Source: Candidatus Micrarchaeota archaeon
Lineage (GTDB): Archaea; Micrarchaeota; Micrarchaeia; Anstonellales; Bilamarchaeaceae
Direction of reading: 5' to 3'
Assembly (NCBI GenBank): GCA_040754495.1
Contig: JBFMCO010000059.1
Coordinates: forward strand, 1 to 13,274
DNA: 13,274 bases
Each line of letters opens with the position of its first letter. The first letter of the stretch is position 1. The notes beneath the pieces were generated by a model. That model saw only the letters and a program-made list of their open reading frames with translations, had not been told where the DNA came from and did no database searches. Made by a program: the position numbers and the translations under genes. Below are positions 8,528-12,233 of this stretch, in pieces.

Positions 8528-8710
8528 GGGGAAATGAGCTAACCTGGTATGCTGTCAGCTTTGGGTCGCACCTTTTTTGGAAAAAGGTGCGTCCAAAAAC
8601 CGGCTGTTGAGAAACCCTTCCGGGTTTTTTTAGCAAGACGGTTTTGGGCCGCCTTTTCCTAAAAGGCGGAAAAAAAGCTGGTTGTCTGAGTTCAAATCTC
8701 AGTTTCCCCA
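8528..8710 (+). tRNA. tRNA-Pro(UGG), split by a 110-nt intron at 37/38; exons 8528-8565 and 8676-8710; CCA not encoded
   Basis: Acceptor GGGGAAA/TTTCCCC + A73. D-arm AGC-TAACCTGGTAT-GCT. Anticodon stem TCAGC/GCTGG with loop TT-TGG-G|A. T-arm CTGAG-TTCAAAT-CTCAG. Mature length 73 nt. Confidence 0.93.
8566..8675 (+). other. tRNA-Pro intron (110 nt) made of three hairpins
   Basis: H1 CGCACCTTTTT-TGG-AAAAAGGTGCG (8567-8591). H2 long imperfect stem 8593-8647 with CCC-TTCC-GGG apex. H3 CCGCCTTTT-CCT-AAAAGGCGG (8649-8669). Confidence 0.9.
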
Positions 8711-8773
8711 TTGCCGGGCCTACTTCTGCTAATCTTCGGCGGCCCAGGCTATGCCCCGCCTGAGGTCCCCCCG

Positions 8774-9451
8774 TCATCCCCCGTTGGGCCAAACCATCCT
8801 GCCCTTGTGGAAAATGCGCCCGCTCCCATGGCCTGGAGTGCCGAGCGTTTCGATGCCGCCATCAACATGCACCTCGCCGCCAATGATGCCCCATGCCGCC
8901 TGCCGCCCCGCGTCCCCGTTGAGTACGAGGACGCCCCCCTCCATCCTGCAGGCGAGGAAATCCCCGGCGCAGCCGTCTATTTTCAGCGAGCCCTCGAGCA
9001 TCTCGTAGCCTGCACCGGCGCCGGCATCGCCCTTCACGGAGAGCGCCCGCATGTTGCGGTAGCCGAGCATCGAAACCTTCCACTCAAGATGGTCTAGGCA
9101 CAATGCGTAGTCGCTGCCAGAGCCGTTGTTCACGAGCGCGCTGACAAAGAGGCCGGCCCTGCGGCGAATCTCGCCACCCGACCCCAGCGCAGGAAGGCCT
9201 TCCAGCACGAACCGCGCGACATCGTCCGGCGACCACCTGAGGCCTTCAAGCGACACGAGCATCGAATCGTAAATCTCCTCGTATCTTGTGTTTCCCAGGA
9301 AAAGGGGCACCGATGAAAATACGTCCACGAGCTCGCCGAGCCTTTCGTTGGTCTTCCCCTCCGCGCTCCTTGCCGCCTGCTCCTTCATGGGCCGATAGCC
9401 CCTGAACCTTCCTGATGAATGCAGCACTGCATCTGCCGGGCGGAGAATCAT
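8774..9451 (-). CDS. Hypothetical protein with C-terminal GltB/FmdC/FwdC-like GXGXG beta-helix (225 aa)
   Basis: Repeats LSVKGDAGAGAGYEMLEG / LKIDGCAGDFLACRMEGG / LVLNGDAGRQAAWGIIGG. ATG 9451 has TTTAAAA 24-30 nt upstream. The track's 10066 start overlaps the opposite-strand gene and is spurious. Confidence 0.8.
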   Translation of the reverse strand: MILRPADAVLHSSGRFRGYRPMKEQAARSAEGKTNERLGELVDVFSSVPLFLGNTRYEEIYDSMLVSLEGLRWSPDDVARFVLEGLPALGSGGEIRRRAGLFVSALVNNGSGSDYALCLDHLEWKVSMLGYRNMRALSVKGDAGAGAGYEMLEGSLKIDGCAGDFLACRMEGGVLVLNGDAGRQAAWGIIGGEVHVDGGIETLGTPGHGSGRIFHKGRMVWPNGG

Positions 9452-9474
9452 GGCTTTATCCGTGTTTGACTCCG

Positions 9475-9565
9475 TTTTAAAGTGTTTGCATGCGCTTTGA
9501 CGCGCGGATGTGCAAAGCGCCAAAAAACCGGTTTTTCCGGTGAAAAACGGCGAACCATTTATATA
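9475..9565. promoter_or_regulatory. Divergent promoter region: TATA boxes at 9475-9481 (-) and 9558-9565 (+), flanking palindromes
   Basis: TTTAAAA (-) and TTTATATA (+) at canonical spacing from ATG 9451 and ATG 9587. Inverted repeats lie between them. Confidence 0.55.
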
Positions 9566-9586
9566 GTTATCGGCGAAAAACTCCTC

Positions 9587-10747
9587 ATGGCAACCAGAAA
9601 GATACGACTCCCCAGCATAGAGATTACACCAGAGATAGACGAGCGAGCCAAAAGGCCCCAGCGGAAGAAGTCGCTGAGCGTCCACCACAAGACGCCCGAC
9701 CGCTTCAGCTTCTCGCATCTCGCGAGAATCCTGACTAGCGGCGAGCGCCTCGCGATGCTGAACGCGGTGGACCGGCTCAAGGGCCGCGCCCGCGTGCTTG
9801 TGGAACTCGCGCTGTTCTCCAACTTCCAGTTCGTGAGGCTGGCCGCCGTGGAGCACCTCCATGTTGACCTGGAGGCGCTGCTTGATATTGCGAAATACTG
9901 CCATTACGAGGACACGAGGGCCTCCGCGCTGGACGAGCTTTCCGTCAACCCGGAAGCGCTCGTCGAAGTCGCCTGCTCCTCGCTCTTTGGCAGCACGAGG
10001 CTCGATGCGGTGGCCCTGCTCTCTGATGCGGATGCCCTTGCAAAGGTCGCATCGCGCTCCCCGCACAAGGATTCCCGCGAGTCGGCGCTCGAGCGCATCT
10101 CGGACAATCCCGGCGCGCTGAGGAGGGTGGCCGAGGAGTCTTCTTACCGGAGCGTGCGCATGAGCGCAATCAGCGGCCTGTCATCCCACGTGGAGTCGCT
10201 GTGCTCCCTCGTCCTCTCGAAGCACGCTGAAGTGAAGAGGATGGCGGCGGCGAAGCTTTCGGCCTACGTAGAGGAACTGAGCGACCCGGACGCGCTGATA
10301 GAGATAGCCAAGGTATCGCCCAGCGAGGACGCGAGGTACATCGCGGTCGGAAGGCTCTCGAACGACCCGCTGTCGCTACGCTCCATAATCTCAGACTCCA
10401 GCCACAACGACGCCCGGACGACCGCGCTCATGCTGCTCTCGGACATGGTGTCCGACCTCGACGACCCGGAAATCCTCTCGGACGTGGCCATGCTCTCCCC
10501 CTACCCGGACTGCAGGACGGCTGCGGTGGAGCGCCTGGTCGGCCAGAGCAACGCGCTGCTATCGGTCGCCAACAAGTCCCGCTTCAAGGACGCGCGGGAG
10601 CTTGCGCTCAGCAAGCTGAGGGACGACGTCGAAGCATTGAAGAGCGTCTCGAAGCTCTCCAAATACAGCGACACCCGCAGGAAAGCCCACAGCCTGGTGT
10701 CCAAGCCGGAAGTCTTCGAGTCGGAGCTGTCCAGGATTCTCGGTTAG
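9587..10747 (+). CDS. HEAT-like alpha-solenoid repeat protein (386 aa, ~11-12 repeats of ~27 aa)
   Basis: Repeats such as SPHKDSRESALERISDNPGALRRVAEE, SPYPDCRTAAVERLVGQSNALLSVANK and SRFKDARELALSKLRDDVEALKSVSKL. ATG at 9587. Confidence 0.85.
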   Translation: MATRKIRLPSIEITPEIDERAKRPQRKKSLSVHHKTPDRFSFSHLARILTSGERLAMLNAVDRLKGRARVLVELALFSNFQFVRLAAVEHLHVDLEALLDIAKYCHYEDTRASALDELSVNPEALVEVACSSLFGSTRLDAVALLSDADALAKVASRSPHKDSRESALERISDNPGALRRVAEESSYRSVRMSAISGLSSHVESLCSLVLSKHAEVKRMAAAKLSAYVEELSDPDALIEIAKVSPSEDARYIAVGRLSNDPLSLRSIISDSSHNDARTTALMLLSDMVSDLDDPEILSDVAMLSPYPDCRTAAVERLVGQSNALLSVANKSRFKDARELALSKLRDDVEALKSVSKLSKYSDTRRKAHSLVSKPEVFESELSRILG

Positions 10748-10773
10748 GCTCTTGGCGGGCCGGCTGCGCATGC

Positions 10774-10838
10774 GGGTTTCCGGTTCCGGGTTTCCAGTTT
10801 CGAGTTTGCCAGAACCCTAAACCGAGAACCCAAAACCA
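10774..10838. repeat. Degenerate 7-mer tandem repeats in inverted arrangement
   Basis: GGGTTTC CGGTTC C GGGTTTC CAGTTTC GAGTTTG, then CC, then AGAACCC TAAACCG AGAACCC AAAACCA. Confidence 0.7.
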
Positions 10839-10876
10839 CCTTAGCCTTTATTAACCTCAGATGCGTATGGCCCTGC

Positions 10877-11137
10877 ATGGGAGAGGATGAGAAGACCAGG
10901 CTTTCCATTCTGGCCAAGCTCAGCAATCTTTCCGTGAAATTCGGCAAAAGGAAGGCGCGCGACTCAGGGAGAAAAAAATGGCTTGAGGTGAGGCGCGACC
11001 TGGAAGCGCTCTGCGGGGCCGCCCGCGAGGACGACCTGGAGCGCATGCTCAAAGCAATGGAAAGCGAGATATCAGCGCGCGAAGGCGCACCGCAGCCATC
11101 AGGCGAGATGACCATGGTGAAGCGCAGGCGCTCCTGA
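10877..11137 (+). CDS. Small helical hypothetical protein (86 aa)
   Basis: GC3-rich codon usage like neighbouring genes. TTTATTAA at 10847-10854 upstream. Fills the gap between two genes. Confidence 0.7.
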   Translation: MGEDEKTRLSILAKLSNLSVKFGKRKARDSGRKKWLEVRRDLEALCGAAREDDLERMLKAMESEISAREGAPQPSGEMTMVKRRRS

Positions 11138-11172
11138 AGGAAATTTAAACTCGTTTATACAAATTATACAAC

Positions 11173-11844
11173 ATGCCCCGGAAAAGAAGCGGCAGCTTCA
11201 GGGTGCGGCCTGCAACCGACCCCGCCCTGCCCCGCACCGTTCCGCCCCCGACGCTCTCGGATGTCATGCCCCGGGCCGAGCCCTTGCGGTCCAATGTCCC
11301 GCTTCGGCTCAGGCTGGCAAGCCAGGACGCCGGAGAGCGTGCCGTGGCTGCATGGGAATCCAAGCTCATCTCCGAGGCAGGAGACATCGGGGATATCCTC
11401 CAGGCCCTGCCATCAGCGATGCGCCTCGCGCTGAAGCCCGAATCCGGCACGGCAGCGAAGGTGTATCTGGCCGAGGCCCTGATGAATTCCGCCAAATCCG
11501 GCGCTGATATAGAGCCGGCACTGGCCGTCGTCCCGCTGTGCATCGAGGACAACAGCCTGCAGCTCCGCAACCGCATCCTCCTCGCGCTGGGGCATTATTG
11601 CGACAGGGGAGGGGACATCTCAGAATACGTCGGGCTGCTCCTGCAGCGCCTCGTGAGCGACATCGCCCCCATGAACCAGGAGGCGGCACTCAGTGCGCTG
11701 AAGTCGTTCGTTTCGCAGGGGCCGCTGAAGGCGCACCAGGTGCATCTGGCATTGGGCGAGGAAAAGCAGTACGAGAATCCCGACGTGCAGGAGCGCGTCC
11801 AGGAGCTGAAGGACGCGTGCATGGCGGCGCTCGGGAAGCGCTGA
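11173..11844 (+). CDS. Hypothetical protein with ARM/HEAT-like helical region and Pro-rich N-terminus (223 aa)
   Basis: Helical pairs such as LRNRILLALGHYCD and NQEAALSALKSF. TTTAAA at 11144-11149 upstream. Confidence 0.75.
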   Translation: MPRKRSGSFRVRPATDPALPRTVPPPTLSDVMPRAEPLRSNVPLRLRLASQDAGERAVAAWESKLISEAGDIGDILQALPSAMRLALKPESGTAAKVYLAEALMNSAKSGADIEPALAVVPLCIEDNSLQLRNRILLALGHYCDRGGDISEYVGLLLQRLVSDIAPMNQEAALSALKSFVSQGPLKAHQVHLALGEEKQYENPDVQERVQELKDACMAALGKR

Positions 11845-11893
11845 GCGCCGGACACAGGAAACTGAAGACCACCGAAGAAAGTTATTGCTGAAG

Positions 11894-11900
11894 AAAAAAA
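11894..11900 (-). terminator. Oligo-U terminator of tRNA-Thr
   Basis: T7 run on the - strand starting 6 nt downstream of the discriminator base (11906). Confidence 0.55.
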
Positions 11901-11941
11901 TAGTTAGCCCCCGGAGGGATTTGAACCCCCGACTTCCTCCT

Positions 11942-12126
11942 TTCCCGCTTCCCTATGGAACGACGCATCGTTCCATGGGCGGAGGGAACGAAGTTCCCTA
12001 CCGTTAGGAAAAGCGGGGCCAAAACGGGCTTGCTAATTTTGCCCTTGCGGGCAAAATGGTTTTCACCGAAAAACCCGGAAGGGTTTTTCAACAGCCGGTT
12101 TTGATCCAACTTTTCCTAAAAGTTGG
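11942..12126 (-). other. tRNA-Thr canonical 37/38 intron (185 nt), multi-hairpin, homologous to the tRNA-Pro intron
   Basis: C32-U33-C34-G35 pair with the intron's 3' GGGC to give a 4-bp BHB central helix; the 3' bulge is A-A|A38. Shares 34-nt and 33-nt blocks with 8596-8662. Confidence 0.9.
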
Positions 12127-12147
12127 TACGAGAGAGGCGCTCTGCCA

Positions 12148-12192
12148 TTGCGCGCCTTGGCGTGCAAAACTTGAACGAGCACGTTCAAGGCT
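12148..12192 (-). other. tRNA-Thr non-canonical D-loop intron (~45 nt, probably position 15/16)
   Basis: Extra sequence between AG(14-15) and TGGCA. Removal restores GCTC-AGTGGCA-GAGC. Contains hairpin CTTGAACG-TGCT-CGTTCAAG. Exact boundaries uncertain by 1-3 nt. Confidence 0.8.
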
Positions 12193-12233
12193 CTGAGCTA
12201 CGGAGGCGGGTAGACTGGATATGCCCCCTCGCT

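Follow-up and report, generated by a model that had tools for sequence, protein, structure and literature searches.

The contig JBFMCO010000059.1 of a Candidatus Micrarchaeota archaeon (assembly GCA_040754495.1, family Bilamarchaeaceae), whose 13,274 nucleotides form the window analyzed here, contains two tRNA genes, tRNA-Pro(TGG) and tRNA-Thr(CGT), interrupted between nucleotides 37 and 38 by related introns of 110 and 185 nucleotides. The two introns probably (with a probability of about 0.8) belong to a family of tRNA introns of the protein-spliced, bulge-helix-bulge (BHB) type that is specific to its lineage and has repeatedly been copied. The family is built from hairpins and is named family A here, whereas family B denotes a second recurrent family of introns. 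The comparison of tRNA genes within and between genomes shows that family A has spread by copying to many tRNA genes and to three positions within them, the D-loop, the 37/38 site of the anticodon loop, and the T-loop. The source genome (G000; other G numbers denote relatives and C numbers contigs, the window being the whole of contig C59) is a metagenome-assembled genome (MAG) of 72 contigs and 1.63 Mb, with a G+C content of 59.5% and a completeness of approximately 80%.

Interrupted tRNA genes of the window

The boundaries of the tRNA-Pro intron are fixed by its orthologs. The tRNA-Pro(TGG) gene is intron-less in at least 14 congeners, as determined from contiguous exon matches and verified in the sequences of G017, G015, and G023. 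The intron-less orthologs read ...CTTTGGG|AGCTGG..., with exons otherwise identical to those of the window gene, which places the intron at 8566–8675. Removal of the intron restores a canonical tRNA, because the joined tRNA-Pro exons equal the intron-less orthologs. The three exons of tRNA-Thr, when joined, form a standard cloverleaf. The D stem in the 5′ exon of tRNA-Pro is weak, as is typical for tRNA-Pro of Micrarchaeota; the D arm of tRNA-Pro from ARMAN-2 is degenerate (PMC3239211).

The initial annotation of the window had placed both introns at 37/38, and its coordinates hold. It had also reported two blocks shared by the introns. The first one, of 34 nucleotides (8596–8629 compared to 12102–12069), is identical at 33 of 34 positions, which corresponds to a blastn E value of ~1e-10 against the 1.63-Mb genome, and direct comparison of the second (8630–8662 and 12036–12004) gives 28 identities in 33 positions. 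The 5′ hairpins H1 of the two introns have different stems around the same TTTT-NGG-AAAA center, and the exons are not specially alike, since the mature tRNA-Pro and tRNA-Thr share 38 identical columns of ~73; both observations agree with what had been noted before. The present analysis adds a D-loop intron of tRNA-Thr, an insert nested in its 3′ hairpin H3, the recognition of H1 and H3 as inverted versions of one hairpin type, and the recurrence of family-A modules at ~26 loci of G000. The features of the two genes are as follows.

8528–8710, forward strand: tRNA-Pro(TGG) gene, with exons 8528–8565 and 8676–8710 and intron 8566–8675
8528–8565, forward: 5′ exon of tRNA-Pro, nucleotides 1–37; exons identical in the intron-less orthologs
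8566–8675, forward: family-A intron of tRNA-Pro at 37/38, 110 nucleotides; boundaries from the intron-less orthologs
8567–8591, forward: 5′ hairpin H1, CGCACCTTTTT-TGG-AAAAAGGTGCG, from intron nucleotide 2; based on folds and hairpin family statistics
8593–8647, forward: H2 domain with outer stem CCAAAAACCG/CGGTTTTGG; includes the 34-nucleotide core 8596–8629
8648–8669, forward: 3′ hairpin H3, GCCGCC-TTTT-CCT-AAAA-GGCGG; based on the fold and on repeats
8670–8675, forward: tail of six A residues, four of which face U32 U33 U34 G35
8676–8710, forward: 3′ exon of tRNA-Pro, nucleotides 38–73; read from the sequence and from the intron-less orthologs
12207–11906, reverse strand: tRNA-Thr(CGT) gene with three exons, a D-loop intron, and a 37/38 intron
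12193–12207, reverse: exon 1 of tRNA-Thr; orthologs in G022, G018, and G099
12148–12192, reverse: D-loop intron of tRNA-Thr after nucleotide 15, 45 nucleotides; not family A
12127–12147, reverse: exon 2 of tRNA-Thr, ending in the anticodon CGT and A37
11942–12126, reverse: family-A intron of tRNA-Thr at 37/38, 185 nucleotides; based on sequence comparison
12106–12126, reverse: H1, CCAACTTTT-AGG-AAAAGTTGG; an identical 22-mer lies 3′ of the RNase P RNA gene on contig C61
12069–12102, reverse: 34-nucleotide core, 33/34 identical to 8596–8629 of tRNA-Pro
12037–12068, reverse: two extra small hairpins, not in the tRNA-Pro intron, common to the introns of tRNA-Ala(CGC), tRNA-Ile(GAT), and tRNA-Arg(GCG)
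12019–12036, reverse: TTAGCAAG and the 3′ strand of the outer stem, CCCGTTTTGG; read from the sequence
11951–12004, reverse: nested double-hairpin insert of 54 nucleotides splitting H3, antisense; the same insert type is in sense orientation in other introns
11942–11950, reverse: 3′ half of H3 and tail (AAGCGGGAA); based on tail pairing and the fold
11906–11941, reverse: exon 3 of tRNA-Thr; read from the sequence and from a T-arm and acceptor scan

The tRNA-Pro intron scores 100.8 bits with covariance model R1. Its H2 domain contains the internal loops GCTGTTGAG and TTTTAGCAAGA and the inner hairpin AAACCC-TTCC-GGGTTT. H3 together with its GTTTTGG flank, which starts at 8641 in tRNA-Pro, is the most repeated module of family A, with ~20 copies in G000. 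Both precursors fold far better than their shuffled versions, with z = −5.2 for tRNA-Pro and z = −8.7 for tRNA-Thr.

Architecture and proposed splicing of family A

Family-A introns start at nucleotide 1 or 2 with the palindromic hairpin H1, stem-TTTT-NGG-AAAA-stem, which is followed by (N)CCAAAAC and an internal loop of CTGTTG, CTGTTTG, or CTGATGA. Next are an inner hairpin, AAACCC...GGGTTT or TGCAAACCC..., a second loop of TTAGCAAG or CGACAA, and GTTTTGG. The CCAAAAC and GTTTTGG strands form the conserved stem around the inner hairpin (H2); all copies agree in this stem and in parts of the internal loops. The palindromic H3, GCCGCC-TTTT-CCN-AAAA-GGCGG, is an inverted version of H1 and leads into a purine-rich tail of 2–7 nucleotides that is specific to the host tRNA. 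The introns are 50–213 nucleotides long. Short versions of 50–57 nucleotides consist of part of H1 and the GTTTTGG and H3 end only, minimal versions in relatives retain H1, the stem, and H3, and long versions carry extra hairpins or nested inserts.

Sixteen decoded 37/38 introns of G000 carry family-A modules, and there are three further copies in D-loops and one in a T-loop. The hosts of the 37/38 copies are tRNA-Pro (TGG), Thr (CGT, TGT), Ala (CGC), Ile (GAT), Arg (CCG, GCG, CCT), Leu (CAG), Val (GAC), Gly (CCC), Glu (CTC, TTC), Asp (GTC), and Lys (CTT, TTT). According to a manual and approximate census, the ~20 copies constitute about half of the estimated 42–45 introns in the ~35 tRNA genes of G000. 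The copies are distributed over at least 13 isotypes, the exons of which are no more alike than those of any two tRNAs, and all 16 examined 37/38 introns, which were selected for carrying family-A modules, share at least 30 nucleotides at 80% or higher identity with an intron of another amino-acid family. The element had initially been described as one of anticodon loops; many copies are indeed located there, but the D- and T-loop copies demonstrate that it is not confined to them.

The window tRNA genes were decoded by hand, and a scan for acceptor stems and T arms also recovered both. ARAGORN with default settings found no tRNA genes in the window. Its intron-aware mode reported 17 tRNA genes in the whole of G000, some of which were spurious or mis-typed, called the window tRNA-Pro a tRNA-Gln, and missed tRNA-Thr. 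Only about six of the ~35 tRNA genes located in G000 are uninterrupted. Because default finders overlook most of the interrupted genes, tRNA counts used as criteria of MAG quality will be too low, and thus biased, for this lineage.

A covariance model derived from seven clean copies recovers all family-A copies of G000 and also scores well on the reverse strand. Because the element is nearly palindromic, so that both strands score, model scores are unusable for determining its orientation, and the asymmetric extra hairpins were used instead. They are in tRNA-sense orientation in all eight copies that carry them. At 42 of the 94 TTTTNNNAAAA sites in G000, the flanks form at least four contiguous base pairs, with 16 different stem sequences, compared to ~8 sites with shuffled partners. 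An alignment of 24 sense-strand copies, taken from several genomes, has 93% paired cells and compensatory changes at 23 of 35 pairs. The sense strand has 41 G-U compared to 13 A-C pairs, mostly in H2.

In the canonical archaeal splice motif, nucleotides 32–35 pair with intron nucleotides n−5 to n−2, which results in a 4-bp helix with the splice sites in 3-nucleotide bulges on either side, and the h′ helix follows the 5′ bulge. The H1 of family A begins where h′ should begin, and H3 ends where h′ should end; folds indicate that the two hairpins can form locally or pair together. In the window introns, the intron-side helix is the hairpin H1 and not a helix closing the whole intron, and the splice motif is thus relaxed. 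H1 of the tRNA-Pro intron is proposed to represent the h′ helix beside the 5′ splice site. The AAAA of the tRNA-Pro tail forms three of four pairs with U32 U33 U34 G35, all of them A-U, which corresponds to a relaxed central helix. The CGGG tail of tRNA-Thr forms all four pairs with C32 U33 C34 G35 and leaves a 3-nucleotide bulge around the 3′ splice site; the 4-bp central helix and the 3-nucleotide 3′ bulge are also present in the minimum-energy fold of the full-length precursor. Among 19 family-A introns, the tails show better pairing with the anticodon loop of the host tRNA than with the loops of other tRNAs (permutation P = 0.004, positions 34–35). Therefore, the last few nucleotides of the intron are host-specific, and everything upstream is shared. 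The D-loop copy on contig C14, read by eye, has a strict motif with a GCUC:GAGC center and a 10-bp h′. A strict BHB in all members of the family was considered and rejected, since the scores of the central helix range from 1 to 4 of 4.

The genome of G000 encodes RtcB and a 391-residue-long EndA that matches the epsilon2 endonuclease of ARMAN-2 (PDB 4fz2) over its full length with E = 1e-132. The ARMAN-2 enzyme cleaves both strict and relaxed substrates, that is, BHB and bulge-helix-loop (BHL) motifs (PMC3239211, PMC12397907). In the proposed mechanism, the tail would pair with nucleotides 32–35 to form the central helix, or with a strand of the D stem in the D-loop copies, and H1, or H1 paired with H3, would supply the intron-side helix. 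The broad-specificity epsilon2 endonuclease would cut in the two flanking bulges, and RtcB would join the exons. Cleavage and ligation of family-A introns, as suggested by the pairing and the gene content, could make the intron cost-free and allow it to grow long.

Spread of family A and alternative explanations

Family A occupies the tRNA-Pro(TGG) site in G000 only. In G011, G022, and G006 an unrelated family-B intron of ~124, 83, and 117 nucleotides, respectively, is located at the same 37/38 site; the gene downstream of tRNA-Pro is also the same, with nucleotide identities of 71–73%. The comparison of the filled and empty tRNA-Pro sites revealed no target-site duplication. The nearest relative of the tRNA-Pro intron in other genomes is in tRNA-Glu(TTC) of G017, with 87% identity over 97 nucleotides. 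Orthologs of tRNA-Thr(CGT) carry family-A introns at 37/38 that are 98 (G022), ~105 (G018), and 51 nucleotides (G099) long. At the D-loop site they have a family-A-like intron, a different one, or none, the first in G022 and G099 and the last in G018. Family B (GAGCCTTTTGGCT...GGCAAAAGCC...CCCTGAGG) recurs in different tRNAs and positions as well, and in G000 it was also observed in a D-loop intron on C58 and at C31:10689-10893.

Model searches of relatives, in which a strong match was defined by E ≤ 1e-6, provided strong matches in eight of 43 sampled genomes of the same family, namely seven of 12 from the same genus and one from a sister genus, and none in 77 genomes of the order's other families. 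Within the genus, the number of strong matches per genome varies from 0 to 18 with both strands counted, and that of matches to the tRNA-Pro gene used as a query, exons included, from 2 to 26. All but one of the 29 full-length copies inspected in relatives are inside tRNA genes, at the D-loop, 37/38, and T-loop positions, with some tRNAs holding two. In G000, ~19 of ~26 model-matched loci are inside tRNA genes, which make up less than 1% of the genome. The almost exclusive location of full-length copies in tRNA loops indicates that the route of their arrival is targeted to tRNA structure, because a transposon inserting at random would leave mostly intergenic copies. The earlier view of homologous non-coding introns in different tRNAs as a mobile family is thus backed by the spread over isotypes, presence and absence at orthologous sites, and variation in copy number. 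The introns match no Rfam family and no guide motif, and the modules recur in many independently assembled MAGs; a known RNA family and an assembly artefact were among the doubts raised in the initial annotation.

An exact 29-nucleotide module of H3, GTTTTGGGCCGCCTTTTTCGAAAAGGCGG, was found in 91 stretches among ~186,000 species genomes. All of them belong to archaeal MAGs, mostly of Micrarchaeota, Micrarchaeia, and Bilamarchaeaceae, except three contigs of one bacterial MAG. This MAG, UMGS1591, is that of a gut bacterium from the Ruminococcaceae with 64% G+C, and its three contigs (L106, L134, and L181) contain the 29-mer in an intergenic repeat of ~250 nucleotides. The neighbors of the repeat encode a response regulator and a glycosyl hydrolase, with no transposase.

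Double-hairpin inserts of ~55 nucleotides interrupt the T-run of H1 or H3. Relative to transcription they have either orientation; their polarity with respect to the local half-palindrome is always the same, and they lack target duplications. Examples are the insert at 11951–12004 on the reverse strand of the window and those on contigs C4, C28, C50, and C56 (L029, L038, L040, and L044) and in G021 (L024). One insert type is composed of CCCTAT-hairpin-ATGGGG and a second hairpin. The inserts look like DNA-level insertions targeting the palindrome. The possibility that they are introns within introns was rejected, because their borders, examined by hand for the inserts of tRNA-Leu, form no 4-bp central helix. 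Settled introns probably act as safe havens that gain small DNA insertions such as that of 54 nucleotides in tRNA-Thr.

The hairpins also occur outside of introns. From the 42 hairpins of G000, 23 are located in tRNA genes, four just 3′ of tRNA-Arg(CCT), tRNA-Lys(CTT), or RNase P RNA, and 15 elsewhere, most of the latter with a CAAAAC or GTTTTGG flank. The archaeal RNase P RNA gene at C61:643-336 (RF00373, 71 bits, E ~1e-19, below the gathering score) is directly followed by a 38-nucleotide piece that is identical to the start of the tRNA-Thr intron at 36 of 38 positions. Further on in this region (C61:296-643, L096), after the piece, a unit of ~85 nucleotides terminates with another copy of the 17-mer from the RNase P 3′ end, GACTATGCCCCTCACTT. 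The same tandem arrangement at RNase P is present in G022, pieces of the region are multi-copy in many congeners, and the end of contig C61 is an assembly-breaking repeat. In G017 and G022, the position 3′ of RNase P RNA is taken by a similar hairpin with ATCAAAC or ACTAAAC behind it. The H1-type hairpins at this position in all three genomes suggest that stable-RNA genes, too, have the module as a conserved 3′ flank. Such a flank may have given rise to the intron cassette; alternatively, the hairpin may act generally as a signal for the endonuclease or for termination.

Two other loci of G000 have H1-type hairpins attached to RNA-like sequences. A possible unannotated small RNA is located at C28:26740-26845 (L091:441-546). 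This sequence of ~80 nucleotides, preceded by a TATA-like box, is 85–90% conserved in at least seven congeners and matches no Rfam family, and an H1-type hairpin and CCCAAAAC follow it directly. At C23:10331-10421 (L095), downstream of an intron-less tRNA-Gly(GCC), there is a partial duplicate of the 3′ end of this tRNA, composed of a T arm with an 8-nucleotide insertion, the acceptor strand, and the discriminator, fused to an H1-type hairpin, CCCAAAAC, and TTCCTGTT. The copies on C5 and C29 were also considered as conserved small-RNA genes; this was rejected, the C5 copy having no syntenic counterpart in 39 congeners.

It is conceivable, although doubtful, that the hairpin cassette, stem-UUUU-NNN-AAAA-stem followed by CAAAAC, is a portable recognition module of the epsilon2 endonuclease that would provide a cleavable half-site beside any helix. 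It would serve as a 3′-end processing signal of stable RNAs, the sites considered being those at RNase P RNA, two tRNAs, and the conserved small-RNA-like sequence, and, in inverted pairs, as an introner-like element. If this is true, inverted cassette pairs would enter tRNA loops and be spliced at once, which would constitute a prokaryotic counterpart of introners and a concrete route of intron gain.

That the introns spread between tRNA genes, as initially claimed, is seen by comparison for the copying into many tRNAs; for the route there are three candidates. An RNA-level route, in which splicing is reversed or mis-ligated and the product is copied into DNA, is tentatively placed ahead of the others. 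It is favored by the coincidence of the ends of the element with splice sites, by the sense orientation of all eight informative copies and the excess of G-U over A-C pairs, and by the cassette 5′ end abutting the 3′ end of a stable-RNA gene or fragment in several places. Structure-guided insertion or recombination at the DNA level is a nearly equal contender, and the behavior of the ~55-nucleotide inserts and the solo hairpins outside tRNA introns speak for it. Less likely, although to be taken seriously, is that mainly the cores were exchanged between older introns. The similarity among copies is mosaic, with the tRNA-Pro core closest to that of tRNA-Thr (97%) and the whole tRNA-Thr intron closest to that of tRNA-Ala(CGC) on contig C4 (92% identity over 93 nucleotides), which indicates that recombination between copies also contributes.

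Several observations weigh against interpreting family A as a set of copied, protein-spliced introns. Fitting the alignment used for covariation to the model biases it toward the structure, and because the copies are related to one another, the counts of covariation, orientation, and G-U pairs do not represent independent events. The central helix of the tRNA-Pro precursor, with its three A-U pairs, slides in the minimum-energy fold, and several family members score only 1–2 of 4 for this helix. Hairpins and 5′ half-elements outside tRNA introns show that the modules are not purely intronic. No reverse transcriptase was found in the 80%-complete MAG of G000, a result that makes the RNA-level route less convincing.

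A generic palindromic DNA repeat resembling miniature inverted-repeat transposable elements (MITEs), repetitive extragenic palindromes and bacterial interspersed mosaic elements (REP/BIME), or palindrome-associated transposable elements (PATEs), which inserts genome-wide and survives in neutral tRNA introns, is an unlikely source of the copies. The ends of the element, H1 with CCAAAAC and GTTTTGG with H3, do resemble terminal inverted repeats, the reverse strand scores well with the model, solo hairpins and half-elements exist outside tRNA introns, and the 29-mer is part of an intergenic repeat in an unrelated Ruminococcaceae MAG. The ~55-nucleotide inserts, present in either orientation without target duplication, point to DNA-level insertion for those inserts. 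However, a genome-wide repeat would not be expected to have 28 of 29 full-length copies in the <1% of the genome occupied by tRNA genes, ends within 1–7 nucleotides of splice sites at three loop positions, and tails adapted to the host tRNA, and the filled tRNA-Pro site lacks a target-site duplication. Y1 (IS200-type) transposases are encoded in nine of 40 genomes of the genus, but are absent from G000 and from the copy-rich G011, G021, G006, and G022. Their presence is not associated with copy number in the genus, and among the copy-rich genomes examined only G109, with two copies, has Y1. The ends of IS200-like elements in relatives are unlike H1, H3, and the nested inserts. A Y1 transposase gene with its own end hairpins, which are unrelated to H1 and H3, is located in G018 (C1:64688-65047, L081), 136 bp upstream of a tRNA-Arg(CCG) with a family-A intron.

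It is also rather improbable that the introns are old and vertically inherited, with their similarity caused by concerted evolution through gene conversion or by duplication of tRNA genes. The mosaic similarity fits this explanation, as do the tRNA-Glu(TTC) orthologs of G000 and G017, which keep the ends of the intron and differ in its center, and the presence of a 37/38 intron in four of four examined tRNA-Thr(CGT) orthologs. The A-rich tail of tRNA-Pro(TGG) is similar in families A and B, which fits the replacement of a core inside an older intron. By contrast, vertical descent does not agree with the intron-less tRNA-Pro(TGG) genes with identical exons in at least 14 congeners, with the occurrence at three loop positions and in at least 13 isotypes with dissimilar exons, or with copy numbers from 0 to ~20 among species of one genus, and family A was not found outside one taxonomic family. 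A comparably small chance is given to the core being conserved not by recent copying but because the excised RNA, linear or circular, functions as a guide, protein-binding RNA, or regulator. The invariant CCAAAAC/GTTTTGG stem and loop parts and the excess of G-U pairs on the sense strand would be expected of a functional RNA, some D- and T-loop copies carry the box-C-like heptamer CTGATGA, and archaeal tRNA introns are known to be circularized, one class of them containing C/D guides (PMC12558985). Nevertheless, no Rfam family matches the introns at gathering thresholds or at E values up to 1, and none of the Rfam intron families, including group I and II introns, match those of the window, which at 110 and 185 nucleotides are also too short to hold a homing endonuclease reading frame. 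A box C/D guide intron was rejected because the window copies read CUGUUGA, without the GA for a kink-turn and with no box D after it. Likewise, H2 was rejected as a kink-turn, C/D, or H/ACA element, since the GA dinucleotides are absent from the window copies and from the largest subfamily, which has CTGTTTG in place of CTGTTGA, and there is no ACA box. The comparison with C/D guides identified no guide-length complementarity in family A. Moreover, the inner part of the element is dispensable, and in most congeners the corresponding tRNA site is free of the element. That the shared blocks arose by faulty assembly or binning of a repeat-rich bin has hardly any probability: although the MAG is fragmented and incomplete, with identical repeats at some contig ends, the same modules are found inside tRNA genes of many MAGs assembled independently in different studies, both window genes are more than 1 kb from the contig ends, and removal of the introns restores perfect tRNAs.

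Relation to known mobile elements and tRNA introns

Eukaryotic introner elements are MITE-like DNA elements that create spliceosomal introns upon insertion. They share with family A that the element carries most of what splicing requires, that new copies are nearly neutral, and that they appear in lineage-specific bursts. However, introners insert genome-wide into protein-coding genes, produce target-site duplications, and depend on other splicing machinery, whereas family A resides in tRNA loops with no duplication seen. REP/BIME elements and IS200/IS605-derived PATEs are imperfect palindromes of ~30 nucleotides with a conserved 5′ flank, often arranged in inverted pairs. Similar to the hairpins of family A, they have solo copies just downstream of genes and lack target duplications; however, they are extragenic, whereas the full-length family-A elements are intronic, and G000 has no REP-associated tyrosine transposase (RAYT) or Y1 transposase. 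The C/D-box guide intron of tRNA-Trp resembles family A in being long, structured, and non-coding, and it is excised at a BHB and circularized (PMC12558985). In contrast to it, family A has no box C/D pair and no Rfam match, occurs in many isotypes, and varies among species.

Candidatus Micrarchaeum acidiphilum ARMAN-2 is from the same phylum as G000 and has the same three-unit epsilon2 EndA and degenerate tRNA-Pro D arm (PMC3239211, PMC3488258, PMC12397907). Many of its tRNAs are also interrupted at D-, anticodon-, and T-loop positions; however, the introns described are short, for example 13 and 25 nucleotides, with no shared family or mobility reported, and transposition was mentioned only as an idea from Thermoproteales. 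A full-text literature search on tRNA introns of Micrarchaeota and Micrarchaeum returned nothing describing family A, and the paper naming Bilamarchaeum does not mention introns.

The closest known system is the large-scale transposition of tRNA introns in Thermoproteales, reported by Fujishima et al. 2010 according to the summaries in PMC4090602 and PMC10714607. In both systems the host endonuclease has broad specificity and recent intron gain by copying has been inferred, and family A has the same hallmarks of similar introns across isotypes and positions and of presence or absence at orthologous sites. The Thermoproteales enzyme is of the (alpha-beta)2 type, whereas the host of family A is a DPANN archaeon (Micrarchaeia) with an epsilon2 enzyme. 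When compared by description, not by sequence, family A differs from the Thermoproteales introns in its length of 50–213 nucleotides, modularity, palindromic end hairpins, three-helix layout, and nested inserts, and in the half-elements that flank other stable-RNA genes. According to a 2026 census of Asgard tRNA introns (bioRxiv 10.64898/2026.10.13.758758), cross-isotype families account for 28% of introns in Thermoproteales compared to 1.5% in Asgard, and no general way in which introns arrive was identified. A 2014 review describes the mechanism of intron transposition in Thermoproteales as unknown (PMC4090602). For the question of how archaeal tRNA introns arrive, family A provides an uncommonly clear test case. 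Orthologous sites are available in the empty, the filled, and the differently filled state, the parts of the cassette can be assigned to those of the splice motif, the half-elements next to other stable-RNA genes hint at the origin of the cassette, and the host enzyme type has a crystal structure and an established in vitro cleavage assay. Family A is probably of a known kind, that of protein-spliced tRNA introns that spread by copying, and is new in its architecture and host lineage.

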